Assembly (NCBI RefSeq): GCF_050320075.1
Contig: NZ_CP190018.1
Source: Escherichia coli
GTDB taxonomy: Bacteria > Pseudomonadota > Gammaproteobacteria > Enterobacterales > Enterobacteriaceae
DNA: 64,000 nt
Reading direction: 5' to 3' (one strand)
The notes under the pieces are model-generated. The model did no database searches and was not told the DNA's origin. It worked only from the letters and a program-made list of their open reading frames with translations. Of this stretch, positions 16,686 to 55,702 are shown piece after piece (the first letter of the stretch is position 1; each line of letters opens with the position of its first letter). A program made the translations under genes and the position numbers.

Positions 16686-16849
16686 GTGTATAGAATTCCA
16701 AAATCGAACAGGAACATATACATAATCCTATACACATTTAGTACTGGATTCTACTGGAAGGTTATGGACTAACACGGACAACGATAACAAAAAATCTTTT
16801 ATAAAACAGTATGCTTATGGACAAATACGGACGTTTGAAGAAGTTGGGA

Positions 16850-16895
16850 TGGTGCCGATAATAGGAGTCGAACCTACGACCTTCGCATTACGAAT
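16850..16895 (-). other. 46-nt duplicate of the thrW 3' end (att junction between satellite and P22-like prophage)
   Basis: Exact match to 55717-55762 (tggtgccgataataggagtcgaacctacgaccttcgcattacgaat). Diverges inside the anticodon stem, so it is not a complete tRNA. Confidence 0.9.
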
Positions 16896-17126
16896 CTGTA
16901 GCACCAATCATAACTATCTGTTTTAGCAAGCATTAACCGCATTCACCAAGCAATAGTTGATGGCACAAACAGAAAGTTGATGCATGATGTTGTCATGTGT
17001 ATGTCACAAATACGGCACAACGATCTTCAAACATGTAGCCACTCAGCATAGAAGAGCACAAAGCCTTGCAATCCAGTGCAAAGCTTTGTGTGTCTCAGTT
17101 TTGTTTCATCTGTAATTATGTGTTCG

Positions 17127-17429
17127 CTACGATGCAAGAATCCATACCGATAAGCATCCGATAATTGGGAAAGAAAAATCCAACAAACTTCCCACACCCC
17201 ACGCGCGCGGATCAAAACCGCCCCACCACGGCATATTCATACGCTTGCCATGCCCGAACATTTCAATCCAGCGATATTCTGCCTGGGTGTGTTCACGCGC
17301 AATGAAGAACGTACAACCGGCTATCGCACCGTAAGCCCAGTTTCCGGTAAAAAGACCAATCAGTAGCTGCGCAGCCACAGCACAAAGTGCATGAAGTAAG
17401 GGTGTTATATCCATTTTCATCCTACCCAA
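17127..17429 (-). CDS. Small membrane protein of unknown function (att-proximal)
   Basis: 100-aa ORF (likely start MKMDITP at 17420 or 17414) with 2-3 hydrophobic segments. Same strand as the tailspike and acyltransferase. Confidence 0.4.
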   Translation of the reverse strand: MGRMKMDITPLLHALCAVAAQLLIGLFTGNWAYGAIAGCTFFIAREHTQAEYRWIEMFGHGKRMNMPWWGGFDPRAWGVGSLLDFSFPIIGCLSVWILAS

Positions 17430-17456
17430 TAAAACGGGGCGCTCGGCCCATTAATA

Positions 17457-17627
17457 TTATTTAGACGCAAGCGCTGCCTCAATTGCAGATAACATTTGTC
17501 TTAATTCTGCGTTTTCTTCTTCCAGTGCTGTTATTCTGTCGTCTGACTCTCTGGCTACCTGAACAAGCAAGCCAGTAACACCAGAATAATCTACAGTGTA
17601 ATACCGTTCACCTTCTTCACCTAAAGG
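17457..17627 (-). pseudogene. Tail-fibre C-terminal fragment (intramolecular chaperone/S74-like end)
   Basis: 56 codons with no start: ...YYTVDYSGVTGLLVQVARESDDRITALEEENAELRQMLSAIEAALASK*. Resembles the C-terminal coiled tail of S74 chaperone domains. An in-frame stop lies just upstream. Confidence 0.5.
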
Positions 17628-17687
17628 ATGACAAAATCACATAAATAATTTAAAAATCATAGCATTAGATTACTTAATGATTAAATA

Positions 17688-17815
17688 ATAGACTGCGAAA
17701 CGCGACAAAACACAACATATCCAGTCACTATGAATCAACTACTTAGATGGTATTAGTGACCTGTAACAGAGTATTAGCGCAAGGTGATTTTTTGTCTTCT
17801 TGCGCTAATTTTTTG
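17688..17815 (+). other. Lambda-like attP P-arm plus sib/tI hairpin relic
   Basis: aaaacacaacatatccagtcactatgaatcaactacttagatggtattagtgacctgtaacagag, then ttagcgcaag...cttgcgctaa + T6 (17774-17814). Matches the lambda attP P arm and sib region as I recall it. No core or int. Confidence 0.6.
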
Positions 17816-17885
17816 TCAACGCACTGGGTTAGTTGAATTTACAACCATGCTCAGTTTGGTGATCTCTTTAGGTCGATTGTTATGG

Positions 17886-18926
17886 TTATGCTCTGCTTGA
17901 TTCAGTGATTTTGGAATCCTGCATTTTAGTAATCATACCCATAATTTTATGCCTAAGCTTTTCCATTGGGTTTTCGATTAGATAAAAACTTACCGCCCCA
18001 ACTAAGATTGATGCTACCATCGTTGCTATATACATATAGAAACTGATTCCTACGTACCACACACCCATTGCTAGAATCAGGAAGTGCCATAGGTATATAG
18101 AGAAGCTCCATTTACCAATGTAAGACATTAACGGTGTTGACAGAGCCCAAGCAAATACACCTTCTCCATAGCTCATTAGCAGAACAATGAGTCCAAATAT
18201 TGGCGCATAGAAAATAAATTTGTTGAGAACCCATCCATCAGTAAACCCACCAGTTAACTTCCACATAACTTTAGGCAGTGCAATAAGCATTGATACAATA
18301 AAGAACAGGAAGGCTATATCAGACAACTCTTGACCAATTTTAAGGAAATTATCGTGATAGAGAAATGCTGCAATCATTCCGCAAGCAAACAGTGGGAAAT
18401 ACCACATCACCATTCCGCCATACGCACTATCCATCGCAGGGTACAATCCCTGTAGCAATACAGCCAGTGCGAAAATAAGGAATGCCGCTGCTTTTCCATT
18501 GTACACTTTTTGAATTGCGACACCAGCATACGCAAAGAATGGAAGTATGAAGTAGAATTTATACTCAATTGGTATTGTCCAGAAATGAAGCACGGCCTCT
18601 TTCATCGTTATGATTGAGATTGCCGTATTCAAATCAAAATACCCAAAATATGAATACACGAGAACAGCTATTGCGAACACCGGAAGGATTCTCATTGTTC
18701 TTCCAAGGAAATAACTTAAAAGAGACCGCCAGGAAAATCCGGTAGAAATAAATCTACTGGTTAGCAAAAATGCGCTGAGAACAAAGAATATCCAAACGCC
18801 AAACTGTGAACTTCCACCAAGCATAACCTCATACTCATGAAAATATATTCCTGTAGCGTGGGCTATTATTACAAGGAATACCGCTATTGCCCTTAGTCCA
18901 TCAAGAGACTTGATTTTACCTTTCAT
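17886..18926 (-). CDS. oac: Acyltransferase-3 family membrane protein (O-antigen acetyltransferase-like, lysogenic conversion)
   Basis: 346 aa from MKGKIKSLDGLRAIAVFLVIIAH (start 18926). About 10 hydrophobic segments. Sits directly after the tailspike, as oac does in Sf6. Confidence 0.75.
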   Translation of the reverse strand: MKGKIKSLDGLRAIAVFLVIIAHATGIYFHEYEVMLGGSSQFGVWIFFVLSAFLLTSRFISTGFSWRSLLSYFLGRTMRILPVFAIAVLVYSYFGYFDLNTAISIITMKEAVLHFWTIPIEYKFYFILPFFAYAGVAIQKVYNGKAAAFLIFALAVLLQGLYPAMDSAYGGMVMWYFPLFACGMIAAFLYHDNFLKIGQELSDIAFLFFIVSMLIALPKVMWKLTGGFTDGWVLNKFIFYAPIFGLIVLLMSYGEGVFAWALSTPLMSYIGKWSFSIYLWHFLILAMGVWYVGISFYMYIATMVASILVGAVSFYLIENPMEKLRHKIMGMITKMQDSKITESSRA

Positions 18927-19009
18927 TTCTTTCCCAGATATGGAGTGAACATCTGCGAAAATGTAGCACATTTCAAGGTAAACAAGAAGCGCATCCATGC
19001 GCATTTTCA

Positions 19010-20929
19010 TCACCCTGCCTTGGTGTATGTCCAGTTAAATGTTGTTGTTCCCTGGCTTGTGATGGTTACAATCCTTCCTGTCACTGTAAATGATATCAAC
19101 CCTCCTGACTTAAGCGGAGTTAAAGTAAGTGTTGTTCCGTCCCACATGGCAAGCTGAAGCGAAGAGAAATTTGTTCCACTGCTTTCTGCCCAAACGCTTA
19201 TCAGGTACATCCCTTGGCTATTTGGCAGTTCAAACAACGTAGTTGCTACGTTAGCTGCAACAGCCTGAGTTCCTTTCGCTGTGTACACTGCTGGCAACTG
19301 ATTACCTGCAGAGCTTCGTGATTCAACATATGAGCCTGAAGTTTGCGTCCCAGTTAATGAGCAGTCAGTAAATACTCCATTCCCTGTGCTGTAAGTTGAT
19401 ATTACAGGAGTCCCACCAGTCGGAGCCTTAAACCGGCATCCCTCAGCAATTATTTTTGCTGTTGAGTCTGTCAGCAATGTGTTTGGGTATCCAGAGCCAG
19501 TGTAGGTTATTGATTCGCTATCAAGGAAGCTATCGGTACTTGATTTTATGTTAACAATGCTTGTGCCTGTTGCAAAGATAAATGCTGCTGTCCCACTCCC
19601 CGTTGTTTGCATTGAGTTTCCATGCCCGGCCAATCCTGATATATGGGCAATAGTATCATTAAGTTTTATATACGACGCAGTAATTCCATTTGTATTTTTT
19701 ATTATATTAGACTCACCATCATACCCTGTAATAGTAAGACACTTACATCCAGAAAAATATAACCCTGAGGAATCAAATGTATATTGCGACCCGTCAACTG
19801 TGATCTGGTCTCCTGCACAGTTTATTAGCTGAGGAGACAGGCAATTTACAACATACCATGCCTGTGCTGCATCCAGCACATAACATGTATCCCACTGTAT
19901 TGTCGTTCCGTTCGCCTTATAGAAACCATGCGCAACTCTCCTCGCCCATACCTGGGTATACTTTGTTAGGTAATTTCCAGAGTCATCATATATGGCCCAC
20001 CATGCACCATCAACCTCAACATTTTTAATGTGCATAACGCCTGGTGAAGTAGTTCCTCCATCAATTAGAATGCCAATTTTACCATCATTGCCAGTAGGTG
20101 ATGTAGGGCGTCCTCCATCGTAAAAAATATAGACATTTTCAATATTTATTGTATTAAACGCTGCGTGGTAATGGAAACAAGCTATATTTCCTATTACTGC
20201 TATGAAAGTTTCCGGCCTATTTATGTTGCTGTTTGTTTCGCCATTTATTGTGCAGTTTGAATTCATCTCTATCGTTGCATTTACGAAGTAAGTTCCAGAT
20301 GTCAATAATACATTCCGCCCTGTATTAATTGCGGCCTGTATGCCTGCATAGTCAAGAGACTGAGTTAGTGATGTTACGAATGGATAAACAGCCTGCGCCG
20401 CTGATAGTGTGGAGAATTTCTCGCTGAGTGGATGCAGAGTTCCGTCAGCTGTTGCACCGAAATCCTTGGCTGAAATGAAGTTGGTATTTTTATCATGTTG
20501 AGTTAAAGCTATTGAGCCGATATATGGCTGCTTAACTGCAACTAGTGCATCTCCCATTCCATCAGCATCGCTTTCTAACTGCTGCTTAAACTGATCAGGG
20601 TCATACTTCAGCACATTAGGAAAATAGAACTGCTGTGCACCATACGCATCATATACAGCCATAGAATGGCCTTGCACAGTTACGAACTTGGCAATCTGTC
20701 CGTTATATACAGGGTAACCAGCGGCGTTAATGATGATTGGTTGCGAAACAGGAACGTGAGAGCCGTCTTCGTTCTCTACATAAACCTGAATCTGGTTTTC
20801 TGGATTTACTGGGTCCGTGTCAATTTTACCGATATAAATTTTGCCATTGGCAACCGCTTTAAAAGAACGCGCCATAGTGAAGAGTTGCGAAGGCATGCTT
20901 ACCACAACATTTGCGGTGATATCTGACAT
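19010..20929 (-). CDS. Tailspike: P22-type N-terminal head-binding domain with divergent receptor-binding body
   Basis: 639 aa from [40 protein letters not shown] (start 20929). The N-terminal ~110 aa are P22 gp9-like. The remainder is Gly/Thr/Asn-rich, like a beta-helix. Confidence 0.85.
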
Positions 20930-21050
20930 TTCATTGCTCCAGACGAATGATATGATGCAACCATGATGTGATTGCATACCGAAATGGTACTATTGAGTAT
21001 TTATCCAGTAGGTTACGATGCCATTCCACCCAACTGGTGAGGCATCAAGG

Positions 21051-21311
21051 ATGTACAGCAAATACGACGAGGCGCAGTTTCACTTGAGACTTCCGCATGA
21101 ACTCCACGCGAAAATTAAGCAGCGTGCGAAGATGAATAACAGGTCGCTGAACTCAGAGATAATTGCAGCGATTGAGGAATCATTGGATAAACAAAGCTCT
21201 GCATCAGTTTACATTGACGATGCAGAGCGTATGGCAGAACAACAATCTGATATGGTTAAGAAAATTGTCTTTGATACGCTCAAGAAGCTATATAAAAAAG
21301 ACAGCAGATAA
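21051..21311 (+). CDS. mnt: Mnt-like ribbon-helix-helix repressor (immI remnant)
   Basis: 86 aa. The C-terminus DDAERMAEQQSDMVKKIVFDTLKKLYKK closely resembles P22 Mnt. No arc or ant genes nearby. Confidence 0.75.
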   Translation: MYSKYDEAQFHLRLPHELHAKIKQRAKMNNRSLNSEIIAAIEESLDKQSSASVYIDDAERMAEQQSDMVKKIVFDTLKKLYKKDSR

Positions 21312-21400
21312 CCATCCGTTACGGAGGATTTATGCACAGAGATATGCTGAATATTGCGTTCTACATATTTGGTTTTTGCACGTTCCTGGTGTTTGCGAAG

Positions 21401-23794
21401 CTATTCTGACAGCGCATCAGACTTAGCCCCCTGAGTCAGGGCGTTAATGGCCTTTTGTGCCTGCTGCATGGCTTTCTCGAACGCTGTTGATCCGCGTGGG
21501 GTGTTTGCCATTCGGAGCATTGCATTTCTGAATGGCTCGCTCTCATAGGCGCGAGTAAGAAGTCCGTAGCTTACCGCTGCGCCAGTTGTCGCAGGGTTCA
21601 TTGCTGTCCCATATCCGATAATGAACGGGATGGTTTGCTGCCCTGTTGGTGTTGTTACTGCCGCTTTTGCAGCCTGCTGCGTGGATTGCAGGTAGTTTTT
21701 CAATCCTTTCAGATAAGCGGCTTCCTGACCTTTAAATGTGATGCCAGTCTGGTTTTGCAGGATGTTAAGCTGTCGAAGGAACTGGTCAGGGGAACCACCT
21801 GATTTCTCCATCGCCTTTCCAATGATGCCATTGCGCATTTGCGCCCTGCCAACACGACCAACTGAGTTATACAGCGTCTTAATTTCCGATTTGTTCTTGC
21901 TGAATAGCATGTTGTTGACAACTTCCGGCGTCAGGTCGCCTTTCATGAGAACATTCTTCAGCCTGGTATTCTTTAGTTTCGCCGCTTCGTCAGCGTAGAC
22001 GGCATTGGCCTGCTGATATTTACGGAGAGTATCGTTGCCAAGATTCTGACCAATGGCACCATTGATATCGTCGGTCATTGCCTTGTAAACGCGCTGAATG
22101 GCAGCATCGGAACGGTTTGGTAACACTGGTCGCTCCCCCTTCACGTCCATTCTGAACTGGCTGCGCAGATCGCTTAATTGCTTCAAATCCAGATTTACCG
22201 GACCATCAGGACCAGCATTGCGAACAAGCTCATCACGATAGGACTGAAGTTTTGAAATAGTCTCGTTATCAGCAACCTTACCAAGCTTCTGCAGGTTAGA
22301 TATTTCTGTATCAATCTGCTGAATTGCTCTTGCAGGCTGAATGTTTATTCCCGCCATAGCATTCTGAACCTGCTCCAGTCGATTTCCTGCAGCGCGACGA
22401 ATTCCTGATGTTTTCGCTTTAAGGCTGTCAATAACAACCGCTGGATCATACTCACCGAATTTATCAGCAAATCTCTGCACCAACTGGCTTCTCGCTTCCT
22501 GTTGCGTTGCTCTCATTCCGCTTGTGCCAGCCAGAGGGATATTTTCTGCTGTAGTCTGCGCCATTTTTCCGACGCGGGAAGTTGGTTGTAACAGGTCTGT
22601 GGTGTGCAGAGGAACTCCTTCACGCTCTGCAAATCTGATAGCCTGCTGCGCTTCTGGCGCGATAGCACCACGAACGCCACGATAAGCAGCACCTAACCCA
22701 CGTCCGGCAGCGTTAATAGCACCGCCAGTAAGTACACCAACGCCTAAATCGGTGGCGAGTGCTTCCGCATCATCTTTCGCACTATTTGCAGCAAGTGATC
22801 CAACTGCGTTTTCTGCGAGAAGTCGTGTTGCCCCCTGAGCAATTCGACCAGCAAGTGTTGGTGCCTGTGCCGCCGCTCTCTCAACGCCAGCAGGAGTGAG
22901 GTAAGGCAATGATTCAGCAAATACCCTTCCCTCTGTCGTTTGTGGAGTCAGCGCGCCTTGCTGAAGGCCAAAGTCCTGCTCTAATCCCTGCGTTGTTACT
23001 CGTGGCGCTGGTTGATATGTCCCATCGCCAATGCCGAGTTTACCTCCAGCCCAAGCCGCCGCGCTTGTTACAGCATCAGTGAGTTCAGCAGGTATGTTCG
23101 CTACGTTGATTCCTGCCTGTAGTAAGCCGCGCCCGGTTTCAGCAAGTCCATTACCAAGGTCAGACATTATTCCGCCTTGCTGCTGAACAGGTTTCGGTGC
23201 GACAGAACTTACGGGTTGAGGTGGCTGCTGACTGGCTGCCTGCTGCTCAATCTGAGCAAATGGATTATTTGGGTCTGACTGCACGCCTGATGCCGATACT
23301 TGTTCGGATGACTGTGCTTCCAGTTGTGCAAACGGGTTGTTAGGGTCTTGCTGAGGATGTACCTTTGCAGAGGTGGCGCGCTGTTCGACTGTTGAGTCTG
23401 TCACCGGGTCACCCGCCCATTGAGCAAAGCGATCATCAACGTAACCGCGGCCTTCAGGTCCTGGCGTATATTCACCACGCTTTGCCTTCATAACGTTGCC
23501 GGGACCGTCGTGATAAGCCTGAAGAGCGTCACGCCAGTTACCAAACTGCTGGTACATCTTTGCCAGATAGCGCGCGCCAGCGTCAGCCTGATATTCGGGG
23601 TTTTGCATTTGCTCATCGGTATAACCCATATCACGCCATGTCCCAGGCATGACCTGAGTCAATCCTACAGCCCCGGCGGAGCTTACTGCGGCAGGGTTGT
23701 AAGAAGACTCCTTGGCACCCAGTGCAGTCATCAACCCTTCTGGCACACCGTAACGTGCGCCAGCCTGCTCTAACAAATCACGGTAATTAGCCAT
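21401..23794 (-). CDS. Ejection (internal) protein, gp16-position, with N-terminal lytic transglycosylase (SLT) domain
   Basis: 797 aa. Has the GAKESSYNPAAVSSAGAVGLTQVMPGTW SLT motif, and a tandem DPNNPFAQ(L/I)E repeat after it. Last of three ejection-protein genes. Confidence 0.7.
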   Translation of the reverse strand: MANYRDLLEQAGARYGVPEGLMTALGAKESSYNPAAVSSAGAVGLTQVMPGTWRDMGYTDEQMQNPEYQADAGARYLAKMYQQFGNWRDALQAYHDGPGNVMKAKRGEYTPGPEGRGYVDDRFAQWAGDPVTDSTVEQRATSAKVHPQQDPNNPFAQLEAQSSEQVSASGVQSDPNNPFAQIEQQAASQQPPQPVSSVAPKPVQQQGGIMSDLGNGLAETGRGLLQAGINVANIPAELTDAVTSAAAWAGGKLGIGDGTYQPAPRVTTQGLEQDFGLQQGALTPQTTEGRVFAESLPYLTPAGVERAAAQAPTLAGRIAQGATRLLAENAVGSLAANSAKDDAEALATDLGVGVLTGGAINAAGRGLGAAYRGVRGAIAPEAQQAIRFAEREGVPLHTTDLLQPTSRVGKMAQTTAENIPLAGTSGMRATQQEARSQLVQRFADKFGEYDPAVVIDSLKAKTSGIRRAAGNRLEQVQNAMAGINIQPARAIQQIDTEISNLQKLGKVADNETISKLQSYRDELVRNAGPDGPVNLDLKQLSDLRSQFRMDVKGERPVLPNRSDAAIQRVYKAMTDDINGAIGQNLGNDTLRKYQQANAVYADEAAKLKNTRLKNVLMKGDLTPEVVNNMLFSKNKSEIKTLYNSVGRVGRAQMRNGIIGKAMEKSGGSPDQFLRQLNILQNQTGITFKGQEAAYLKGLKNYLQSTQQAAKAAVTTPTGQQTIPFIIGYGTAMNPATTGAAVSYGLLTRAYESEPFRNAMLRMANTPRGSTAFEKAMQQAQKAINALTQGAKSDALSE

Positions 23795-27134: not shown

Positions 27135-28552
27135 TACTCAATCCTTATCTGGCAGCCAGACAGAGTGACAGGTGACTTCGTGATAACGCGCAATTTGAAG
27201 CCGACATTTTTCCTGATGCGCCCTACTCGCTTCCACAAAACGCGTTTGTCGTAAACGAACGGTTCATTCTGCTCAATCATCTGCTCACGCCCGTAATTGA
27301 TGCCGTCAGTGGTTGCAGAGAGAAAAAGGCGGTCAGCATACTGCGCAACGCCAGTTGACGATTCAACCTCAAGGTCGAACACTCTGGCGTTATCCGCTTT
27401 GAACAGTGGAGTAAACAGCAGGTGTTCCTGTTGCTTGTCGTACTGGCTGCTGATGTCGAATTGCAATTTCCCGGTCACGGACTCCAGCTTATCGCCACAC
27501 GTTATCTGATTGCCTTCGTAAATGAAGTCGATAGCGCGGTACACATCGTCATACAGGCCTGTTTTCAGCACACACCATTGCGGACCATTGGCACTTGAAG
27601 ATGCGTCGTACACGAGGACGTGACGCGGAAGATGGATAATCAGCAACTCATGAGCATCAAACCGCAGCGATTCCATCACACCATCAGCCAGTTCATCAGC
27701 AGTGTAGGAGCGTAGTATTTTCTCAATGCTCGCGCTGGCGATTGGTGACACCTGACCGGAGCCGATGATGTATACAGACGGCGCACCTGTTGCCGGATTG
27801 CTGATAAACGCATAGGAATCAGCAAACGGCGTTTTGCAGTAAGTCCCGGCGATTCCTTTTTGCACCATCAGTGATGGCTGTGCGACATACAAAGCGGCAC
27901 CAACGGTGGTTGCGCCAGTCAGGGAGAAATATTCAATCGTCGATGAACCAAAGCAGACGATGAAGTCTCGCCATGTTCCGATGCCGATGATGCCGTCCGG
28001 CTGCGATTCTGCGCGATATTGTGCACTGTATCGGTCAGGGTGCGATTCGTCTTCAAGGTCAGTGATAAACCATGAATCAGTTCCGTCTTTTGACCACGCA
28101 TAACGCCCACGTAAGCGCGTAATGTCGCGAACTGAACCTAACTCGTACTGTGTGAATCCGCTGTCTGTAGGCCAGTTTGAGACGGTTTTAACCGTGCCAT
28201 CATAGCGATACTCGACCAGTTGACCATTAACGCCTACCGCCTGTGATGTTCGACCATGCGCCATTGATACTCTACCACTTCCGGCAACATCACCGACTTC
28301 ACTTTCTCCTTTGTACAGCTTGCCACCACACACGCGATAAACAGCACTCTGCGCCATGTTGTACTCGACGCCGCGAGATACACCGTTCACATCAGAACGT
28401 TTGGCAATGCCCGGGAATGAGCGAAGATATCCGCTGCTGTTGAGTATTTCTTTGGGTGTAGCCAGCATATTCACTGGCATATAGTCGATATAGTCAGCGT
28501 TTCTAAAGTCTTTGCCGACACCTTTCATAAGCGGAAGTTGCTGAATCGGCAT
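27134..28552 (-). CDS. Tail hub / head-completion protein, P22 gp10-like
   Basis: 472 aa, the same length and position as P22 gp10. Confidence 0.75.
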
Positions 28553-47526: not shown

Positions 47527-47534
47527 GGTGAGAT

Positions 47535-48258: not shown

Positions 48259-48429
48259 ATGTCACTTGCAACCACAGTGAAGGAGAGCAAGTTACAGAGA
48301 CGCATGTACACGCAGAAAGCTCTCTGGTATCGCCATAATGGCGACCGCGAAGGAATGCGGGTATGCCTTAATTTGTCCCGAGTCGAAGTATTAAATCAGC
48401 GTTATTTCCTTGGGCCATGTCCATTCTGA
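48259..48429 (+). CDS. Small ORF (56 aa) at kil position
   Basis: GAAGGA SD. MSLATTVKESKLQRRMYTQKALWYRHNG.... Overlaps an alternative 62-aa ORF (48150-48338), and it is unclear which is real. Confidence 0.3.
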   Translation: MSLATTVKESKLQRRMYTQKALWYRHNGDREGMRVCLNLSRVEVLNQRYFLGPCPF

Positions 48430-48439
48430 GAACAATCAT

Positions 48440-49045
48440 ATGAGCAAAGAATTTTACGCAAGACTGGCAGCTATTCAGGAGAATCTGAACGCGCCAAAGA
48501 ATCAGTACAACTCATTCGGTAAATATAAATACAGAAGCTGCGAAGACATTCTTGAAGGCGTTAAGCCGTTACTGAATGGCCTGTTTTTATCAATCAGCGA
48601 TGAAGTTGTGTTGATTGGTGATCGGTATTATGTGAAAGCCACGGCAACTATTACCGATGGCGAAAACAGTCATACGGCAACCGCACTAGCACGAGAGGAA
48701 GAAAGCAAGAAAGGAATGGATTCTGCACAAGTTACGGGGGCTACAAGCTCTTATGCACGCAAGTATTGCCTCAATGGTTTGTTCGGCATTGATGATGCGA
48801 AAGATGCAGATACCGACGAGCATAAACATCAGCAGAACGCAGCAGCAAAGCAATCAAAACCATCACCTACACCTGAACAGGTTCTAAAAGCATTCACTGA
48901 CGCAGCAATGCAGAAAAACACCGTAGAAGAGCTTAAACAGGCGTTCGCCAAAGCGTGGAAGATGCTCGAAGGGACGCCGGAGCAGCACAAAGCGCAGGAC
49001 GTTTACAACATCAGACGAGGCGAATTAGAAGGGGCAACTGCTTAA
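48440..49045 (+). CDS. erf: Erf single-strand annealing recombinase
   Basis: 201 aa from MSKEFYARLAAIQENLNAPKNQYNSFGKYKYRSCEDILEGVKPLL, very close to P22 Erf as recalled. Confidence 0.9.
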   Translation: MSKEFYARLAAIQENLNAPKNQYNSFGKYKYRSCEDILEGVKPLLNGLFLSISDEVVLIGDRYYVKATATITDGENSHTATALAREEESKKGMDSAQVTGATSSYARKYCLNGLFGIDDAKDADTDEHKHQQNAAAKQSKPSPTPEQVLKAFTDAAMQKNTVEELKQAFAKAWKMLEGTPEQHKAQDVYNIRRGELEGATA

Positions 49046-49428
49046 TGGCACATTCGATTACAGTAAGACTAAACAAGCCCGCAAGAGAGTTTCAGGCCGG
49101 GGAAAATATCGGATTCAACATCCGTGCTGGCGTTCAGTATTACGATCGCCAGACAAAAAAGAAAGAATGGACAAACTACAGCGCCGTTGTATTTGCCAAG
49201 CCGGGGGCGCAAGCGGATTACTACCGTAGTGTTCTTGTTGAAGGTGGCATTGTTGAAGTTACCGGAGAAAACATCAGGGTTGATGTTTATCAGGGGCAAA
49301 ATGGTCAATCAATCACTCTTGAATTACTGAATGCAAAGATTGGATTTGCAGCTTCAGGAAACAGCCAACAGCAGCAAAGTAGCAATCATCAAAATAATCC
49401 TGAATACGACGATTCAATTCCCTTCTAA
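49045..49428 (+). CDS. Phage single-stranded DNA-binding protein (OB-fold, acidic tail)
   Basis: 127 aa, TAATG-coupled to erf. A Gln-rich linker precedes the terminal DDSIPF, an SSB-type acidic tip. Confidence 0.65.
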   Translation: MAHSITVRLNKPAREFQAGENIGFNIRAGVQYYDRQTKKKEWTNYSAVVFAKPGAQADYYRSVLVEGGIVEVTGENIRVDVYQGQNGQSITLELLNAKIGFAASGNSQQQQSSNHQNNPEYDDSIPF

Positions 49429-49451
49429 ATTAGCAAAATAAGGATTCCATT

Positions 49452-49748
49452 ATGCCAGCGCCTCTGTATGGTGCGGATGACCCGCGCCGCTGTTCCGGCA
49501 ATTCCGTATCGGAGGTGCTGGATAAATTCAGAAAAAACTACGATCGGATAATGTCGCTACCGCAGGAAACGAAAAAGGAAAAGGAATTTCGCCACTGTAT
49601 ATGGCTTGCAGAGAAAGAAGAACGCGAGCTAATTTACCAGACATCAATCCGACCATTCCGCAAAGCCACATATACCCACTTCCCTGAATATATCGACCCG
49701 CGCCTGCGTAATTACCGCTCACGCTATGGCGCTATCAGTAATGACTGA
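49452..49748 (+). CDS. Abc2-like (anti-RecBCD) candidate
   Basis: 98 aa in the erf-proximal position where P22 carries abc genes. The N-terminus MPAPLYGADDPRR is recalled as Abc2-like, but this was not verified. Confidence 0.4.
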   Translation: MPAPLYGADDPRRCSGNSVSEVLDKFRKNYDRIMSLPQETKKEKEFRHCIWLAEKEERELIYQTSIRPFRKATYTHFPEYIDPRLRNYRSRYGAISND

Positions 49749-49758
49749 GGAATTAACA

Positions 49759-50049
49759 ATGAAAACAATGAAGATAAACATCGACCTCGGAAAATACGTT
49801 ATTACCGGAACCAAACACGATCTGATTCTTAGTGAAAGAGGAATTATCAAAGAAGGCGAGAATGCAGGGAAAGAAACACTAAGCCGTATCGGTTATTACA
49901 GCAAGTTTGAGCATCTGGTTAAAGAATTATGCAACCGTGAAATCCTGTTATCTCAGGCGCAGACGCTACAGGATATTCAGCAACATATCGAGAATTTAGG
50001 TGTGTCACTTAGCATGGCTATTGACCAGTTCGTGGAGAGTAAATCATGA
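49759..50049 (+). CDS. Hypothetical early protein
   Basis: 96 aa from [10 protein letters not shown], with a GAGGA SD 7 nt upstream. Confidence 0.45.
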
Positions 50050-50210
50050 GAGGACTTGCATACAATCCCGGCATTCTTCCGGCAGAAATGATTATTCGCC
50101 AACGCGTAAAGCCAATGCCATCGAGAGAGGAATTGCTCAAGAGAAATTCTTTTCCGTCAGTAAATCAAAACAAATATCTGAATGCGATGTGGCGGAGTGG
50201 GAAGAAATGA
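50046..50210 (+). CDS. Hypothetical small early protein
   Basis: 54 codons, ATGA-coupled at both ends. Too short for the ORF track. Confidence 0.35.
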
Positions 50211-50647
50211 AACAAATGTCACTAATTGAGATGGATGGTTTTCTGAAAGGTAAATGCATCCCAAGTGATTTAAAGGTTAACGAAACAAACGCTGAATATC
50301 TTGTCCGTAAGTTCGGTGAACTTGAATCAAAACTCAACGAGCAGCGTGAGTATTACGAAGGTGTTATCTCGGATGGGAGTAAGCGTATTGCAGAACTGGA
50401 AAGCAACGAAGTCCATGAAGACGGAAATCAGTTTCTTGTTGTTCGCCACCCCGGGAAATCTCCGGTAATCAAGCACTGCACTGGTGACCTGGAAGAGTTT
50501 CTGCGGAAGTTAATCGAACAAGACCCGTTAGTAACTATCGACATCATTACGCATCGCTATTACGGGATTGGCGGTCAATGGGTTCAGGATGCAGTTGAGT
50601 ATCTGCATATGATGTCTGAAGCTGGCATTCGCATCAAAGGAGAGTGA
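50207..50647 (+). CDS. Hypothetical early protein
   Basis: 146 aa from [12 protein letters not shown]. The upstream part of the 215-aa ORF-track entry overlaps two other genes. Confidence 0.45.
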
Positions 50648-50648
50648 T

Positions 50649-51728
50649 ATGAGCACTATCACTAAAGAACGTATCGAATTGTTCATTAAATCCCCGCTTG
50701 AAAACGGGCTTACCCGTGGCGAACAAATGGAACTGGCACGAATTGCACTGGCATCACTGGAACGCGAACAGATTCGCCACGAGCATGCCAAATGGTCTGA
50801 CTCCACATTTGGCTGCGTTGGCCCCATTGGTCCACTGAAACACCTCTCAAAAGAGGCACTGGAAGCCGCAGCCGAACCAGACGATCTTAGCGAGTGGGCT
50901 GATATGCAGTTTCTGTTGTGGGATGCACAGCGCCGTGCTGGCATCAGCGATGCTGAAATTACCGCTGCTATGGAAGATAAATTGAAGATCAACATGGAGC
51001 GCCAGTGGCCTGAACCAAAAGATGGTGAGCCTCGCTTGCACATTAAAGAACCCGGCAACTCTCCGGTAATTCCGGATGGTTTATCCACGGTATGCGCTGA
51101 GGCTTATCAGGTTGTAGGAGTTATGGCAGATGCGCTTGGTGTATTCGGTGATGCAGCAGTACAGAAAGTTCTGGATAACCTGTCACAGCAAAAACTTGTT
51201 CACAGAGATGTGCTGCCGTTCTCGCTTCCGGTGACTCCGGATGGTTGGATAAGCTGTAGTGAGCGAATGCCTGTAATTGGCGAGCTAAATTGGAGAACTA
51301 GTTTTCCTTTACTGGTTACGTGTGAGATCGGCGTTATACCTGCTTATTACGGCTTTGTGAGCGTTAATGGTGATAGGCATTATGGCTTTATGGAGAGTCT
51401 TAAATACGGAGACGATAACGGCAACCATCCTCAAACTAATGAATATGGTCTGATTAGCAATGTCACACACTGGATGCCACTACCAGAACGCCGCAGGAGT
51501 CGAACAGTGAATAATGCAGAGTTATTTCAGAAAATTTCGGCTCTCGCGACTGAATGCCACGCTATAGCATCTGAGCTTGATGTTGGCGATGAACGAACCG
51601 AGATGTTCGAAATATACAGTGTGCTGCGCAATCTCTGTCGGCGTGGCTACGCCACTCAAGTAGGGCGAATGACTAACCCACTACTCTCATTCTGTGATGA
51701 GGATGACTCGGATGAGGATGACGAATGA
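50649..51728 (+). CDS. EaA-like protein (DUF550-like N-terminal, DUF551-like C-terminal regions)
   Basis: 359 aa. N-terminal HEHAKWSDSTFGCVGPIGPLKHLSKEALEAAAEP...EWADMQFLLWDA and C-terminal GWISCSERMP...THWMPLPE resemble P22-group ea proteins. Confidence 0.55.
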   Translation: MSTITKERIELFIKSPLENGLTRGEQMELARIALASLEREQIRHEHAKWSDSTFGCVGPIGPLKHLSKEALEAAAEPDDLSEWADMQFLLWDAQRRAGISDAEITAAMEDKLKINMERQWPEPKDGEPRLHIKEPGNSPVIPDGLSTVCAEAYQVVGVMADALGVFGDAAVQKVLDNLSQQKLVHRDVLPFSLPVTPDGWISCSERMPVIGELNWRTSFPLLVTCEIGVIPAYYGFVSVNGDRHYGFMESLKYGDDNGNHPQTNEYGLISNVTHWMPLPERRRSRTVNNAELFQKISALATECHAIASELDVGDERTEMFEIYSVLRNLCRRGYATQVGRMTNPLLSFCDEDDSDEDDE

Positions 51729-52108
51729 TGCATAAATCAGTAGCCGGTGAGTTTCAGAAGGAAGTCGATAATACCACTGATCTATTGGACGATATTTTAA
51801 GCATTCTCGCGCTGCTTGAGGCTGGCGATTGGTCAGAACATTGCACTAAAACAGAGCTAGGCGGTCGGCTTGAAAGAGAGATTACACGACTGATTAGCGA
51901 TGCCCAAAATGATTTGTCACCTGAGCATCTCCCCTGCGATGTAGTTCTTGTGCCAGGGATGAGGATACACGAAGGCGTCAGAACGAAAACATTATTAACC
52001 GCATTACAGAGGAGAGCCGAACTAAGCTCGCGGATAAAGTTGATGCCATCCAAAATATTTGATGTCGTCAAATTTACGCCATCGCAACATACTGAGAGAG
52101 ATAAATGA
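51725..52108 (+). CDS. Hypothetical early protein
   Basis: 127-aa ORF, ATGA-coupled. Confidence 0.45.
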   Translation: MMHKSVAGEFQKEVDNTTDLLDDILSILALLEAGDWSEHCTKTELGGRLEREITRLISDAQNDLSPEHLPCDVVLVPGMRIHEGVRTKTLLTALQRRAELSSRIKLMPSKIFDVVKFTPSQHTERDK

Positions 52109-52731
52109 GCACGGTAGCGAACGATCTCACAGAAGATATTCTCAATGAAATTATTGCTGGTGCAAATACCTCGCTTGAGCAACTTCTTGCGTTAGCACTG
52201 AGAGCCGAACGTCGAGACAGAAATCGTTTTTATGAGCGATTACCAGGGAAGCGACCAGATAGATCGGATGAAGAAGGTTGCGATATAGACTACATGGAGC
52301 CTTCAGAGATTTATCAACTTGGTAAAGATGACGGCTGGAACGCTTATCACGATGCTGTGATGAAGTTGGATGAAAAAGTTAAACCTCTTTCTCGACCGGT
52401 AGATCACGGTTTCCGCGATAACTGCGAATGCTCTAGTTGCCAGACCACGACCCGTATTTGTTCCGAATTGACAGATAAGTCCAGCCTAATCTACGAAGTT
52501 AATGTAGGCGGTAATACATGGGTCGAATGCACAAGAGCTGCATACGTAAGAGCAAAAGACAAGGGTGAATTAACCAGAGTTGTTACCAATCACCCAAATA
52601 ATGAGCTTAAAGATCACCAGATTCGAGAACTGGTGAACGAGTTGAGAGATATTGCGGTTCAGTACCACGGAACGCAGCAATTGCGGGAGAAGATTGCCAG
52701 AGCAGTGAACAACTCAGTCCGTAAAAAATAA
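52105..52731 (+). CDS. Hypothetical early protein
   Basis: 208-aa ORF, ATGA-coupled. Followed by a hairpin at 52749-52773. Confidence 0.45.
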   Translation: MSTVANDLTEDILNEIIAGANTSLEQLLALALRAERRDRNRFYERLPGKRPDRSDEEGCDIDYMEPSEIYQLGKDDGWNAYHDAVMKLDEKVKPLSRPVDHGFRDNCECSSCQTTTRICSELTDKSSLIYEVNVGGNTWVECTRAAYVRAKDKGELTRVVTNHPNNELKDHQIRELVNELRDIAVQYHGTQQLREKIARAVNNSVRKK

Positions 52732-52786
52732 GCAATAGTACGATAAAGAGGCCCCATGCTCTTGATGGGGCCTGTAGCAACTAGCG

Positions 52787-52870
52787 TTATGGACGCTGGT
52801 TTACGTACTCAATGATCGCTTTGATAATCGCGAACATCGGCGGCACGATTTTGAACAGTAAGTTAACCAT
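52787..52870 (-). CDS. 27-aa hydrophobic peptide (candidate type I toxin)
   Basis: MVNLLFKIVPPMFAIIKAIIEYVNQRP. GAGG SD 6 nt upstream of the ATG. Convergent with the early operon. Too short for the ORF track. Confidence 0.35.
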   Translation of the reverse strand: MVNLLFKIVPPMFAIIKAIIEYVNQRP

Positions 52871-53117
52871 AACAGGCCTCACTTAGTTTTATCGCGCCTA
52901 GCTGCAAATACCTTTGGGCTTGCCTTTGCAGTTGCAATATCTGTAGTCGCCAGATACTTACGGCACGATTTCGAGTTAAGGTAAGGTTTTAGAGTCACCA
53001 AAAACCTGGACTTAAATCTTCTTTGAGAACAACGATGTTTAGTAAATGGTCATTATTACCTGGTATGACCACTCAACGTTTCTTGATGAATCCAGTACAT
53101 TCGGTTAATCTTAATTC

Positions 53118-53170
53118 AGTCGCCAGATACTTATGGCTCAGGAACAGAGCCGCAAACTCTGTTTCCTTTT
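53118..53170 (+). ncRNA. Candidate sRNA whose 5' end is complementary to the peptide-mRNA leader
   Basis: ttgatg -17 nt- taatct promoter-like sequence at 53083-53111. The 16-nt agtcgccagatactta (also at 52945-52960) sits at the predicted 5' end. Ends in the ggaacagag/ctctgtttcc hairpin plus TTTT. Confidence 0.3.
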
Positions 53171-53201
53171 AAAAAGCCCAGCCTAGTCAACTGGGCTTTT
53201 T
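53171..53201. terminator. Bidirectional hairpin terminator
   Basis: The aaaaagcccag...ctgggcttttt stem is flanked by A5 and T5 runs. Confidence 0.6.
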
Positions 53202-53496
53202 AATGTCTATTTTTAACCCAATGAACCTTCAATACCGTAACATCAGTGTCTTGCGAATTAAGATAGTGTGTATAGGTTATGCATGCAAGTACATAACTCT
53301 GTGGATAACTCAGGAAGGAAAAAGTAGCTCCCGCGCAATTTAGGCCAGACAAGGCTTTCGCAAAAGTCAACAGAGAGAAAAAATTTGTTAAAAATAACGT
53401 TTGTTGGAATTGTATATATTTATGCCTTTCAATAGTTAGCATCTTATTAACATCTTTTTTAAGAGATAGAGTTCAAAAATATATAGCTTCAACATA

Positions 53497-53516
53497 TACT
53501 GTATGTGTATACAGTA
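53497..53516. promoter_or_regulatory. LexA (SOS) box
   Basis: tactgtatgtgtatacagta is a perfect TACTG-N10-CAGTA palindrome, 17 nt upstream of the umuD'-like start codon. Confidence 0.85.
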
Positions 53517-53532
53517 TTAAGAGGCGAGTATT

Positions 53533-53922
53533 ATGGGCTTCCCTTCTCCTGCGGCGGATTATGCTGAGAGCCGTATTTCTCTTGATCAGCAGATAATTAG
53601 ACATCCTTCAGCGACCTACTTCATGAGGGCAGCTGATAGTCATCATCGTGAGGGAATATTACAGGGTGCATTGCTGGTGGTCGATTCCTCACTTACCCCG
53701 GTTGATGGTTCTCTGCTTGTATGCGCTCTGGATGGGGAATATCGCGTAAAAAGATACCGGAAGTATCCACGTCAGCATCTGGAGGATTTAAGAACCGGTA
53801 AGAAGGAAGCATTGCCAAAGGATGACGATGGATGCACGGGCAGCAATGCCGTGTTTGGTGTGATCACTCACATTATCAACGACGCAAGAAGTGGCGAGTT
53901 TGATGATTGTCCCGTGATGTAG
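53533..53922 (+). CDS. UmuD'-like S24-family protein lacking the N-terminal cleavable arm
   Basis: 129 aa beginning MGFPSPAADY, i.e. at the residue after the UmuD Cys24-Gly25 cleavage site. DS (Ser) and VKR (Lys) align with UmuD Ser60/Lys97. No umuC in the window. Confidence 0.75.
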   Translation: MGFPSPAADYAESRISLDQQIIRHPSATYFMRAADSHHREGILQGALLVVDSSLTPVDGSLLVCALDGEYRVKRYRKYPRQHLEDLRTGKKEALPKDDDGCTGSNAVFGVITHIINDARSGEFDDCPVM

Positions 53923-54227
53923 GAGAACTGATTAGGCGGTGCAATGCACCGCCTTTTTATCACACTGCGCGGAATGCGATTTCGCCAGGTATTACTTCAC
54001 CTTGCCAATACATTTGGACAGCAGACTTTCGGCGATGCGTTGCACTTGTTGAGCAGATTCCAGAAATCAGAGATTCATTCGACAAGGTTGCAAAGCGCGT
54101 TCCGGCATTCAAAGGAATCCTCAACGAATGGGATTCCCTCGTTGATCTGTTGAAGTCTGAAATGAAGATACACGGAAACAAAGCACCAGAGACTTACAGA
54201 AGAATTAGCGAGTTACGCAAGGACTAA
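53907..54227 (+). CDS. Hypothetical protein (eaC position)
   Basis: 106-aa ORF between the umuD'-like gene and xis. Confidence 0.4.
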   Translation: MSRDVGELIRRCNAPPFYHTARNAISPGITSPCQYIWTADFRRCVALVEQIPEIRDSFDKVAKRVPAFKGILNEWDSLVDLLKSEMKIHGNKAPETYRRISELRKD

Positions 54228-54317
54228 CCACAGCCTCATACTCGATGAGGCCTGTTCATTGCTCAATGATATCCAGACCTACCGCAATAATACCAATCCA
54301 ATAAATGGAGATTCCAG

Positions 54318-54665
54318 GTGGAAGAAGAAATCTTCACTCGTGAAGAGGCAGCGTCGTATCTGAAGGTAGACAAAGGCACTATCACGCAGTGGATACGAAG
54401 TGGACGACTTCAGGCCGCAAAGATAAATCCAGATAAACCTAAAAGCCCATATCGCATTTGCAAGTCAGACTGCATTGCGGCGCTTAAGTCTGTGAGACAC
54501 AATAGCGCGGTGAATGCGGTTGATGTGCAGGAGGTTAAAGCATGTCAATCAAACTACGCGGTGGCACGTGGCACTGCGATTTCGTCGCGCCAGATGGATC
54601 AAGAGTTAGACGCTCTCTTGAAACATCGGACAAAAGGCAAGCGCAAGAACTTCACGATCGTCTGA
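54318..54665 (+). CDS. xis: Excisionase (P22 Xis-like)
   Basis: 115 aa, GTG start. HTH REEAASYLKVDKGTITQWIRSGRLQAAK and a C-terminal HRTKGKRKNF, as in P22 Xis. Overlaps the int start. Confidence 0.85.
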   Translation: MEEEIFTREEAASYLKVDKGTITQWIRSGRLQAAKINPDKPKSPYRICKSDCIAALKSVRHNSAVNAVDVQEVKACQSNYAVARGTAISSRQMDQELDALLKHRTKGKRKNFTIV

Positions 54666-55702
54666 AAGCAGAAGCGTGGAGAGTAAAAAATCTCGGGGAA
54701 TCACCGAAAAAGCTATTCAAGGAAGCCTGCATACGGTGGCTGCGTGAGAAATCGGATAAGAAGTCCATTGATGATGACAAGAGCATTATATCGTTCTGGA
54801 TGTTGCACTTCAGAGAAGCCATTCTCTCTGACATAACAACAGAAAAAATAATGGAGGCGGTAGATGGGATGGAAAACCGCCGCCATCGCCTGAACTGGGA
54901 GATGAGCCGGGACAGGTGTTTGCGACTTGGCAATCCGGTGCCGGAGTATAAACCAAAGCTTGCAAGCAAAGGAACGAAGACGAGGCATCTGGCAATACTT
55001 CGCGCCATTCTCAATATGGCTGTTGAATGGGGATGGCTTGACAGGGCACCCAAAATATCAACACCACGCGTTAAGAATGGACGCATCAGATGGCTTACAG
55101 AGGAGGAATCGAAGCGCCTGTTTGCAGAAATTGCTCCTCACTTCTTCCCTGTGGTCATGTTTGCAATCACGACAGGCCTTCGCCGTTCCAACGTTACAGA
55201 CCTTGAGTGGTCACAGGTCGATCTGGATAAGAAAATGGCATGGATACACCCTGATGAAACAAAAGCTGGCAATGCGATCGGAGTTCCTCTTAACGAAACC
55301 GCATGCCAGATATTAAGAAAACAGCAGGGGCTCCATAAGAGATGGGTATTTGTCCACACCAAACCTGCCTACCGAAGCGACGGAACAAAAACAGCAGCGG
55401 TAAGGAAGATGAGAACCGACAGCAACAAGGCATGGAAGGGAGCGTTAAAGCGGGCAGGCATTAGTAACTTCCGCTTCCATGATCTGAGGCATACCTGGGC
55501 AAGCTGGCTGGTTCAGTCCGGTGTCTCTCTTCTTGCACTTAAAGAGATGGGAGGATGGGAAACTCTCGAAATGGTTCAAAGATACGCCCACCTTTCAGCC
55601 GGGCATCTCACCGAGCACGCAAGCAAAATCGATGCGATTATAAGTCGCAATGGCACAAATACGGCACAAGAGGAGAACGTGGTGTATTTAAATATGGGGT
55701 AA
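54542..55702 (+). CDS. int: Tyrosine integrase (P22 Int-like, thrW-specific)
   Basis: 386 aa with DKRQAQELHDRLKAEAWRV near the N-terminus and HDLRHTWASW...RYAHL catalytic motifs. The stop is 14 nt before the thrW 3' end. Confidence 0.95.
   Translation: MSIKLRGGTWHCDFVAPDGSRVRRSLETSDKRQAQELHDRLKAEAWRVKNLGESPKKLFKEACIRWLREKSDKKSIDDDKSIISFWMLHFREAILSDITTEKIMEAVDGMENRRHRLNWEMSRDRCLRLGNPVPEYKPKLASKGTKTRHLAILRAILNMAVEWGWLDRAPKISTPRVKNGRIRWLTEEESKRLFAEIAPHFFPVVMFAITTGLRRSNVTDLEWSQVDLDKKMAWIHPDETKAGNAIGVPLNETACQILRKQQGLHKRWVFVHTKPAYRSDGTKTAAVRKMRTDSNKAWKGALKRAGISNFRFHDLRHTWASWLVQSGVSLLALKEMGGWETLEMVQRYAHLSAGHLTEHASKIDAIISRNGTNTAQEENVVYLNMG

Follow-up and report, generated by a model that had tools for sequence, protein, structure and literature searches.

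The P22-like prophage at thrW carries five copies of a 9-bp word, AYGKCACAA, distributed over the two arms of its attachment site, and we put at about 85% the probability that the 16-mers found where these words stand in tandem mark arm-type binding sites for the prophage's own P22-family integrase. The window, i.e., the whole 64-kb stretch of DNA analyzed, contains a series of elements at thrW: an SfV-type scar, a P4-like satellite, and the prophage itself (16896-55716), which has P22-like morphogenesis genes, including a P22-type tailspike, and an SfX/HK542-type thrW integration module. The components of the module and its junctions are as follows.

54318-54665, + strand: excisionase (Xis), 115 aa, HTH_17 domain, 42% identity with P22 Xis
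54542-55702, + strand: prophage integrase (Int), 386 aa, P22 family, with last codons overlapping both int-proximal arm sites
55700-55712, - strand: IHF-consensus match, AATCAAGTAGTTA, in the interval from the int stop codon to the tRNA end (consensus match only)
55717-55792, - strand: thrW, tRNA-Thr(CGT), whose 3' 46 nt (55717-55762) form the other att copy
16850-16895, unstranded: 46-nt copy of the 3' part of thrW, a junction with the satellite arm on its left and the prophage distal arm on its right
17057-17108, + strand: hairpin (14-bp stem, 17057-17090), then GTCTCA (17092-17097) and GTTTCA (17103-17108), from folding and homology

Sequence searches bore out the original prediction of an exact 16-nt repeat, both in its positions and in its distances. 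The 16-mer, CACAAATACGGCACAA, occurs exactly twice in the 64-kb window, on the + strand each time (17005-17020 and 55654-55669); the first copy lies 110 nt into the distal arm and the second 47 to 48 nt before thrW. No further match with up to two mismatches was found in the 64 kb (0.06 expected), and the repeat is clearly nonrandom. Positions 16850-16895 and 55717-55762 hold exact copies of the 46-nt att sequence, and 16866-16888 corresponds to the 23-nt core of the P22 annotation. A 10-mer within the repeat, ACAAATACGG, had been proposed as a core shared with the satellite arm, and it is indeed present on the + strand at 16821-16830, 19 to 20 nt from the att copy, as well as at 17006-17015 and 55655-55664 (0.10 expected in the window). 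A fourth copy, absent from that prediction, lies on the - strand at 52452-52461, inside an ORF, where no similarity to the other sites was found beyond the 10-mer.

Rebuilding attP by joining both prophage ends gave five copies of AYGKCACAA in a single orientation (+), and this 9-mer, rather than the 16-mer, is the true repeat unit. Two copies stand in tandem, 11 bp apart, in the 3' end of int, whereas the distal arm holds one solitary copy plus one tandem pair with 11-bp spacing. The window contains seven occurrences of the word against 3.0 expected, and five of the seven, every one on the + strand, fall in the arms. The predicted arm-type Int sites, with offsets from the tRNA 3' end, are listed here.

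55650-55658, + strand: proximal pair, first site, ATGGCACAA, offset -67, inside the int coding tail
55661-55669, + strand: proximal pair, second site, ACGGCACAA, offset -56, 11 bp after the first
16960-16968, + strand: distal solitary site, ATGGCACAA, offset +110
17001-17009, + strand: distal pair, first site, ATGTCACAA, offset +151
17012-17020, + strand: distal pair, second site, ACGGCACAA, offset +162

The 16-mer is the overlap of a tandem 9-mer pair. The 10-nt "core" is the junction between units, comprising 4 nt of the first site, a 2-nt spacer, and 4 nt of the second, and would not be a recognition element; at its position, relatives have ACAAATATGG. A repeated word distinct from the core on both arms of attP is what is expected at the attachment site of a heterobivalent tyrosine integrase, as are the adjacent xis gene and an arm match to the IHF consensus, the latter identified by consensus only. 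Equivalent IHF matches, again to the consensus only, are found in P22 (AATCAAATACTTA) and in the SfV-type scar (6635-6647). Neighboring arm sites of this sort are an ordinary feature of attachment sites of the lambda/P22 type.

The prophage Int is a tyrosine recombinase, with a PF00589 catalytic domain at residues 184 to 353 (E value, 1.3e-35). It is 54 to 55% identical to the P22 and SfV integrases, and the 54% identity with P22 Int extends across all 386 aa, N-domain included; full-length homology and the same core and attB place it in the thrW-specific P22 Int family. An AlphaFold2 model has strands at residues 4 to 6, 9 to 15, and 21 to 25 and a helix at 31 to 51, with a pLDDT of 83 to 87 over residues 4 to 51. 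In Foldseek, a full-length alignment was obtained between the model and lambda Int (1z1b_A; E value, 1.4e-8; 381 to 388 columns across lambda Int chains), and XerA and IntI were matched as well. The model thus predicts a separate N-terminal arm-binding domain, a small β-sheet plus helix. This domain was not recognized in Pfam or PDB sequence searches, no sequence-level similarity to the lambda Int N-domain was detected, and its fold is a prediction.

Conservation of the sites was assessed among relatives of the module. The int-xis-attP DNA is 97.5 to 98% identical to the SfX/HK542/mEp213/mEp043/HK75/HK446/mEpX2 module, and the free phages HK542 and mEp213 have all five sites around one intact attP core, including both 16-mers and the solitary site. 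In IMG/VR relatives with Int 62 to 65% identical, AATGGCACAAATATGGCACAAG is kept in an otherwise unalignable int 3' end, and where the distal arm is present the 1+2 layout is retained; in two relatives (L068 and L083) the solitary distal site reads ATGGCACAT. Relative to the tRNA end, P22 and SfV have GTCCCA/GTCTCA at -65, -54, +100, +154, and +165, with no other copy in 1.6 to 1.8 kb, and the window counterpart is GKCACA at -65, -54, +112, +153, and +164. These observations bear on the idea that the 16-mer is a nonfunctional leftover, either of a small duplication or of a coding constraint on the Int tail copied into the other arm. One copy does lie in coding sequence, and the identity between the copies ends abruptly after 16 nt. 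However, the proximal pair is conserved across Int relatives of 62 to 100% identity amid divergent flanks, the copies sit at fixed offsets, the five 9-mers share one orientation and 11-bp phasing, and P22 and SfV have a parallel site architecture. A leftover is disfavored and, in our estimate, extremely unlikely.

The arm word also varies with the integrase. Window-type Int N termini (WHCDF...RVRRSL) occur with paired GGCACAA and a GTN-TAQ tail motif, and P22-type N termini (WYASF...RFKQSL) occur with paired GTCCCA. A Xenorhabdus homologue has a P22-type N terminus and a GTCCCA pair beside a different tRNA-like 3' end (CGTCCCAtctaCGTCCCA). In these pairings the arm word follows the Int N-domain type and not the target tRNA. 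A related possibility is that the 9-mers bind Xis or another accessory protein rather than the Int N-domain. Xis covaries with Int between the module types (42% versus 54% identity), so covariation alone cannot separate the two as binder, and directionality factors commonly bind tandem direct repeats. The sites, however, occupy both arms in a 2+3 layout, whereas the known Xis sites of lambda and P22 are on one arm only and P22 is described as having five arm-type Int sites; an annotated Int site of lambda likewise overlaps the int 3' end, and the motif tracks Int N-terminal strand residues even in the homologue that uses another tRNA. We regard recognition by Xis or another accessory protein in place of Int as quite unlikely, although some of the five sites may be Xis bound. 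Arm-type sites for the prophage Int therefore remain our preferred reading. The original prediction holds in this respect, from the position of the repeats on both arms, the P22/SfV offsets, the conservation, and the tracking of the N-domain, but with a 9-mer present five times, not the 16-mer, as the unit.

On the model of the homologous P22 and lambda systems, Int would bind the arm sites (e.g., ATGGCACAAATACGGCACAA) through its small N-terminal domain and the core within the thrW-identical block through its central and catalytic domains, and host factors such as IHF would bend the arms, so that one Int tetramer could bridge arms and core. Such bridging would make integration (attP x thrW) and Xis-dependent excision (between the junctions at 16850 and 55717) directional.

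It had further been proposed that the shared 10-mer allows the Int or Xis of one element to act on the junction of the other, in either direction, with coexcision or interference at a shared att. The relevant features of the satellite are as follows.

15480-16685, - strand: P4-like satellite integrase, 401 aa, Arm-DNA-bind_3 + Phage_int_M + Phage_integrase, with its start codon facing the att junction
16764-16832, + strand: the satellite's own hexamer pairs, ATGGACtaacACGGAC (16764-16779) and ATGGACaaatACGGAC (16817-16832), not part of the phage system
6651-6672, unstranded: satellite distal junction, with aTGGTGC and then a degenerate tRNA 3'-end copy, GATAAGAGGAATGAA, as read in the sequence itself

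Any 10-mer of the 16-mer is nominally improbable in the two satellite arms (0.003 expected, a post hoc figure), this one is 19 nt from the att copy, and the gapped form ATGG-ACAAATACGG-AC is similar to ATGGCACAAATACGGCAC. The att copy at 16850 is moreover physically hybrid, with satellite arm, core, and phage arm. Nevertheless, the 10-mer at 16821-16830 lies inside the second hexamer pair of the satellite. These pairs have the form ATGGAC-N4-ACGGAC (family form, ATGGAY-N4-ACGGAC) and, written as RTCCRT-N4-RTCCRT with a variable spacer, they recur in most of 23 relatives of the satellite Int, from different species; they are probably bound by the satellite Int or its AlpA-type excision factor. 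The 10-mer, which includes that variable spacer, is not conserved in the satellite lineage: it is exact in only 1 of the 23 relatives and absent from O55:H7, another E. coli lineage with the same tandem arrangement, which reads ATGGACtaatACGGAC (ACTAATACGG in this independent tandem). No AYGKCACAA with up to two mismatches was found in the satellite int-proximal arm (16686-16849).

The two recombination systems differ in other respects. The satellite and prophage integrases are 22% identical over a 127-residue stretch confined to the catalytic domain, and their N-domains are unrelated. Mismatches between 6651-6672 and 16849-16870 confine the satellite crossover to aTGGTGC (16849-16855), at the extreme tRNA 3' end, and two relatives (L100 and L101) have the same G-less variant at the satellite distal junction. 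The satellite crossover falls outside the segment corresponding to the core annotated for P22 (16866-16888), so that the "shared att" amounts to a common tRNA gene with different crossover sites. The hybrid junction (satellite arm, att, phage arm) is rare, being present in 9 of 5,426 complete E. coli genomes, and P4-like satellites are known to depend on P2-like helpers, not on P22-like phages. The 10-mer in the satellite arm is best read as a fortuitous overlap with the satellite's hexamer pairs, at which recognition by the phage Int is not predicted, and cross-talk through the 10-mer at the shared att is highly improbable. We would give equally little weight to a variant confined to the hybrid junction (16686-17060), in which proteins bound to the satellite pairs, which stop 18 nt short of the att block, modulate prophage excision, or in which the phage Int weakly recognizes the gapped ATGG-ACAAATACGG-AC. 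If true, a P4-like satellite and a nonhelper P22-like prophage would affect each other's stability just by using a common tRNA gene.

The practical value of these results is modest. They remove a false lead, since the 16-mer and 10-mer give no evidence for phage-satellite cross-talk, and they provide a concrete arm-site consensus, AYGGCACAA (five predicted sites, 2+3), for the widespread SfX/HK542-type thrW module. They also suggest how a two-base change in each site can shift arm specificity within the P22 Int family, together with changes in the Int N-terminal strands and in the Int C-terminal tail that the sites encode. Possible uses are the design of orthogonal integrase/attP pairs and the prediction of independently excisable tandem thrW prophages.

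The closest known system is P22, which shares with the window the target gene thrW, the 46-nt identity block including the 23-nt annotated core, an int 3' end overlapping the proximal pair, and an IHF-consensus match abutting the tRNA end. In both, the repeated word occurs five times, arranged 2+3, and the offsets nearly coincide, the solitary distal site being shifted by 12 nt. Five arm-type Int sites are described for P22 and have reportedly been footprinted experimentally; we equate the GTCCCA words with these sites provisionally, from their position and copy number and the number of sites described. The arm word itself differs at two of seven positions, GGCACAA in the window versus GTCCCAA in P22 and SfV, and the P22 word was not found at the homologous positions of the window, which suggests that the module is a different arm-specificity subtype within the P22 Int family. 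The hairpin (-20.7 kcal/mol; z, -2.67) and the old-type pair behind it (17057-17108) are homologous to the distal-arm hairpin and tandem arm pair of P22 and SfV (84 to 85% identity over 46 to 51 nt), but they sit inside the distal arm in P22 and about 87 nt further from the core in the window; they are probably a relic of an older arm and/or a terminator 3' of int in the circular phage. A published listing gives P22 attP a length of 260 bp, notes IHF sites, and names Xis as directionality factor (PMC4111918).

Lambda attP (P1, P2, and P'1 to P'3) resembles the window, by prediction, in having a heterobivalent Int with arm sites flanking the core, and the predicted three-domain fold of the window Int aligns with that of lambda Int. 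In the lambda record, the "int 4" Int binding site spans 27814-27854, with the int stop at 27812, and tandem sites overlap the int 3' end as in the window. Lambda has two arm sites distal to int and three next to it; the window counts are reversed. The arm consensus sequences are unrelated, and the window target is a tRNA gene.

The SfX/HK542 group consists of lambdoid siphoviruses or podoviruses whose virion modules differ, whereas the window prophage has the P22-type tailspike; the GenBank records examined for the HK542/mEp213 group annotate the core but no arm sites. In Shigella flexneri, SfI is integrated beside SfX at thrW as tandem prophages (PMC3306764). In such arrays, successive integrations into the regenerated thrW leave elements separated by att copies, and the window elements likewise stand in series, but the middle element has a P4-type integrase and a crossover confined to the extreme tRNA 3' end.

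The 16-mer CACAAATACGGCACAA occurs exactly twice in the whole window, at 17005-17020 and 55654-55669, both on the plus strand; no third site is found there, even at two mismatches (0.06 expected). Its 10-nt core, ACAAATACGG, starts at 16821, 17006, and 55655 on the plus strand. An exact sequence search of the window confirmed the positions and distances listed in the original prediction. A fourth, unlisted copy of the 10-mer lies at 52452-52461 (-), inside an ORF (52105-52731); its flanks show no extended similarity to the arm sites, and it was set aside as a chance match because nothing beyond the 10-mer is shared. The tRNA gene thrW, tRNA-Thr(CGT), occupies 55717-55792 (-), and the 46 nt at its 3′ end have an exact second copy at 16850-16895.

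Elements in the window, from left to right
257-5471: defence genes (AbiE, DRT reverse transcriptase), not part of the satellite
257-1967 (-): AbiEii/AbiEi pair
6479-6667: scar of an SfV-type int 3′ end, 96% identical to SfV (RefSeq pseudogene, 6434-6637)
~6651-16849: P4-like satellite, with primase, AlpA, a delta/ogr-like gene, psu, a HEPN gene, and an integrase
15480-16685 (-): satellite integrase, with an Arm-DNA-bind_3 domain
16896-55716: P22-like prophage, 38.8 kb, with a P22-type tailspike head-binding domain
54318-54665: prophage xis
54542-55702: prophage int

The 1069-aa reverse transcriptase gives a full-length match to the DRT RT_UG5-nitrilase model (1,034 bits). The scar, left by an earlier prophage of the SfV type at thrW, comprises the last ~190 nt of an SfV-type int, adjoins the satellite on the left, and closes the defence island; it carries its own tandem GTCCCA pair (6587-6592 and 6598-6603) and an IHF-consensus match at 6635-6647 (-). 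Scar, satellite, and prophage therefore record at least three successive thrW integrations in the window. Beyond thrW, ORFs 55907-57160 and 57172-58362 (-) are taken to be proA and proB. In S. flexneri, thrW lies immediately downstream of proA (PMC3306764).

Reading outward into the flanks of the 16-mer revealed a repeated unit of less than 16 nt, with five copies in the two prophage arms, the distal arm at the 16850 end and the proximal arm at the int 3′ end near thrW.

Copies of the repeated unit in the prophage arms
16960 (+): ATGGCACAA, distal arm
17001 (+): ATGTCACAA, distal arm
17012 (+): ACGGCACAA, distal arm
55650 (+): ATGGCACAA, proximal arm
55661 (+): ACGGCACAA, proximal arm

The 9-mer AYGKCACAA has seven matches in the 64 kb, against 3.0 expected, and five of the seven fall in the two arms, all on the plus strand; the tandem pairs have 11-bp phasing. 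The 16-mer is the stretch common to the two tandem pairs, and the 10-nt core named in the original prediction spans the junction of two sites: 4 bases from the end of one, 2 nt of spacer, and 4 bases from the start of the next. The 7-mer GGCACAA was rejected as the unit, because its 10 occurrences in the window do not exceed the 10.9 expected; the information lies only in the 9-mer and in how it clusters. In the genomes of the free phages HK542 and mEp213 the two prophage ends are fused, so that one core has a 16-mer on either side, the first within the int 3′ end and the second ~110 nt past the core.

The int-xis-attP DNA of HK542, mEp213, mEp043, HK75, HK446, mEpX2, and SfX is 97.5 to 98% identical to that of the prophage, whereas that of P22 is only ~72% identical; the P22 and SfV Int proteins are 54 to 55% identical to the prophage Int. 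Conservation was followed in 80 IMG/VR loci encoding relatives of this Int. At 62 to 65% Int identity the int 3′ end is otherwise unalignable, yet it reads AATGGCACAAATATGGCACAAG, so what is conserved is not the 10-mer as such. In two loci of this group the sequence extends into the distal arm, which keeps both the solitary site and the tandem pair, ATGGCACAT and then ATGACACAAatATGGCACAT.

Counted from the tRNA 3′ end, P22 and SfV have the word GTCCCA (GTCTCA at two SfV sites) at -65, -54, +100, +154, and +165, and nowhere else on either strand of the 1.6 to 1.8 kb examined; the GKCACA cores of the window stand at -65, -54, +112, +153, and +164. The two words are related as G-K-C-M-C-A-A, and one window site, GTCACAA, is intermediate between the GGCACAA and GTCCCA types. 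A MAFFT alignment of attP set the distal tandem pair of the window opposite that of P22 by motif similarity, the BLAST homologue lying farther out (17060-17110); because of this mispairing, positional equivalence is given as offsets from the core rather than as alignment columns. An IHF-consensus match, AATCAAGTAGTTA, lies at 55700-55712, between the int stop codon and the tRNA end, and P22 and the SfV-type scar have such a match at the corresponding place. Layout, conservation, and the P22/SfV parallel thus support the earlier reading of the repeats as arm-type Int sites. On these sequence comparisons, we take the feature to be the arm-type site set of a P22-family integrase, real, functional in kind, and ordinary.

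A different arrangement was seen at four of the IMG/VR loci (L026, L036, L037, and L038): directly after an int and att copy of the window type comes a distal arm of the SfV type, with GTCCCA/GTCTCA sites. Either two prophages of different arm-specificity types would stand in tandem at thrW there, or the attP sites would be hybrids.

The segment 17060-17110 is 84 to 85% identical by BLAST to the part of P22 and SfV in which their hairpin and distal tandem pair lie; in P22 this part is ~87 nt nearer the core than its counterpart in the window. The window segment contains GTCTCA (17092) and GTTTCA (17103), 11 bp apart, and 17057-17090 forms a hairpin whose stem is 14 bp long (-20.7 kcal/mol, z = -2.67). 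The window-type arm thus looks like a newer GGCACAA cassette that separates the core from an older arm of the P22/SfV type. The circular phage may have kept the older part as a sib-like terminator acting downstream of int.

The arm word follows the type of the Int N-domain. Window-type N termini (TWHCDF...RVRRSL) accompany GGCACAA and a tail motif, (N/D)(G/V/D)TN(T/M)(A/T)Q, and P22-type N termini (TWYASF...RFKQSL) accompany GTCCCA; a Xenorhabdus homologue whose N terminus is P22-type adjoins a different tRNA-like 3′ end, and CGTCCCAtctaCGTCCCA is nonetheless present in the 3′ end of this int. The tail motif, Int residues 370 to 376, is encoded over 55650-55669 and is kept in homologues of 56 to 91% identity, in which the rest of the tail varies; the overlapping DNA sites seem to dictate this constancy, the motif being their echo in the protein. 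An AlphaFold2 model of the prophage Int, built on 34 homologues, predicts three β-strands and a helix at residues 4 to 51 (pLDDT, 83 to 87), and Foldseek aligned the whole model over 381 to 388 columns with full-length lambda Int chains (1z1b_A; E = 1.4e-8). Searches with the N-domain gave only a faint DUF6538 match in Pfam (E up to 5) and, by phmmer against the PDB, matches restricted to the core-binding and catalytic parts; hhalign of a three-sequence profile against lambda Int gave a probability of 1.4%.

The original prediction also considered possible, from the 10-mer in the satellite arm, cross-talk between phage and satellite at the shared att. The satellite arm, from the int start to the att copy, contains two pairs of its own, ATGGACtaacACGGAC (16764-16779) and ATGGACaaatACGGAC (16817-16832), and the 10-mer falls inside the second. 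Relatives of the satellite Int were collected from 23 species-level genomes (76 to 97% identity, all but one at ≥83%). Most directly adjoin an intact thrW; the layout, read from the tRNA end to int, is likewise shared by most: GTCCGT-N4-RTCCAT, ~40 nt, GTCCAT-N4-GTCCGT, and TGTGTATAG and CTATACAC at the int start. The hexamers are conserved and the 4-nt spacer is variable (ATTC, ATTA, AACC, ATCA, and others); the exact 10-mer is found in 1 of the 23. The same satellite-phage junction occurs in 9 of 5,426 complete E. coli genomes, the eight besides the source strain being O55:H7, and the one O55:H7 junction examined reads ATGGACtaatACGGAC. No match to AYGKCACAA within two mismatches was found on either strand of the int-proximal arm of the satellite. 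The phage and satellite integrases are 22% identical across 127 residues of the catalytic domain and differ in their N-domains. Comparison of the satellite junctions (6651-6672 and 16849-16870) confines the satellite crossover to aTGGTGC, which forms the very 3′ end of the tRNA and lies outside the segment (16866-16888) that corresponds to the annotated P22 core. No long third att copy was found at the far end of the satellite, where the junction, read at 6640-6680, is a short degenerate copy.

With a variable spacer, no 9-mer match, unlike N-domains, and a separate crossover, cross-talk through the 10-mer is unsupported. Interference at the hybrid satellite-phage junction is very improbable. 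Any 10-mer of the 16-mer would be expected 0.003 times by chance in the satellite arms, which makes the coincidence real, although the figure is post hoc; it arises because both systems use AYGG-initiated repeats phased at 10 to 11 bp and the drifting spacer here reads AAAT. A better candidate for satellite arm-type sites is CTATACACA, with four copies divided between the two satellite ends (6727-6747 and 16685-16736), against 0.23 expected window-wide. In relatives of the satellite Int with identities as low as ~60% it is seen again close to the int start, and it probably represents the arm-type or operator sites of the satellite Int itself.

Two further observations concern the satellite. 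The cargo position beside int holds a 464-aa gene annotated as HEPN domain, at 14123-15517 (-), which has no Pfam or PADLOC match and whose first 38 nt lie within the 3′ end of int. The left end has two 123-nt direct repeats (6785-6907 and 6966-7088, 80% identical) rich in TGTTCAC(C)/GGTGAACA words, presumably resembling the P4 ori/crr iterons bound by the alpha primase.

Given the five sites, their layout and conservation, and the family relationship of the prophage Int to P22 Int, a mechanism can be proposed by analogy with P22 and lambda. The Int N-domain would bind the arm 9-mers, and the core-binding and catalytic domains would act on the core inside the 46-nt block, with IHF-type bending allowing a single tetramer to bridge arms and core. 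Integration would recombine attP with thrW and regenerate the tRNA; excision would join the junctions at 16850 and 55717, aided by Xis. Five arm-type sites have been reported for P22, and from position, copy number, and this count we infer that its GTCCCA words are those sites. Papers on SfI, epsilon34, and SfX describe the 46-nt core only, and no annotated arm sites were found for the SfX/HK542-type specificity subtype, to which this site set belongs. The lambda record offers a precedent, with an annotated Int binding site (27814-27854) that overlaps the 3′ end of int (27812).
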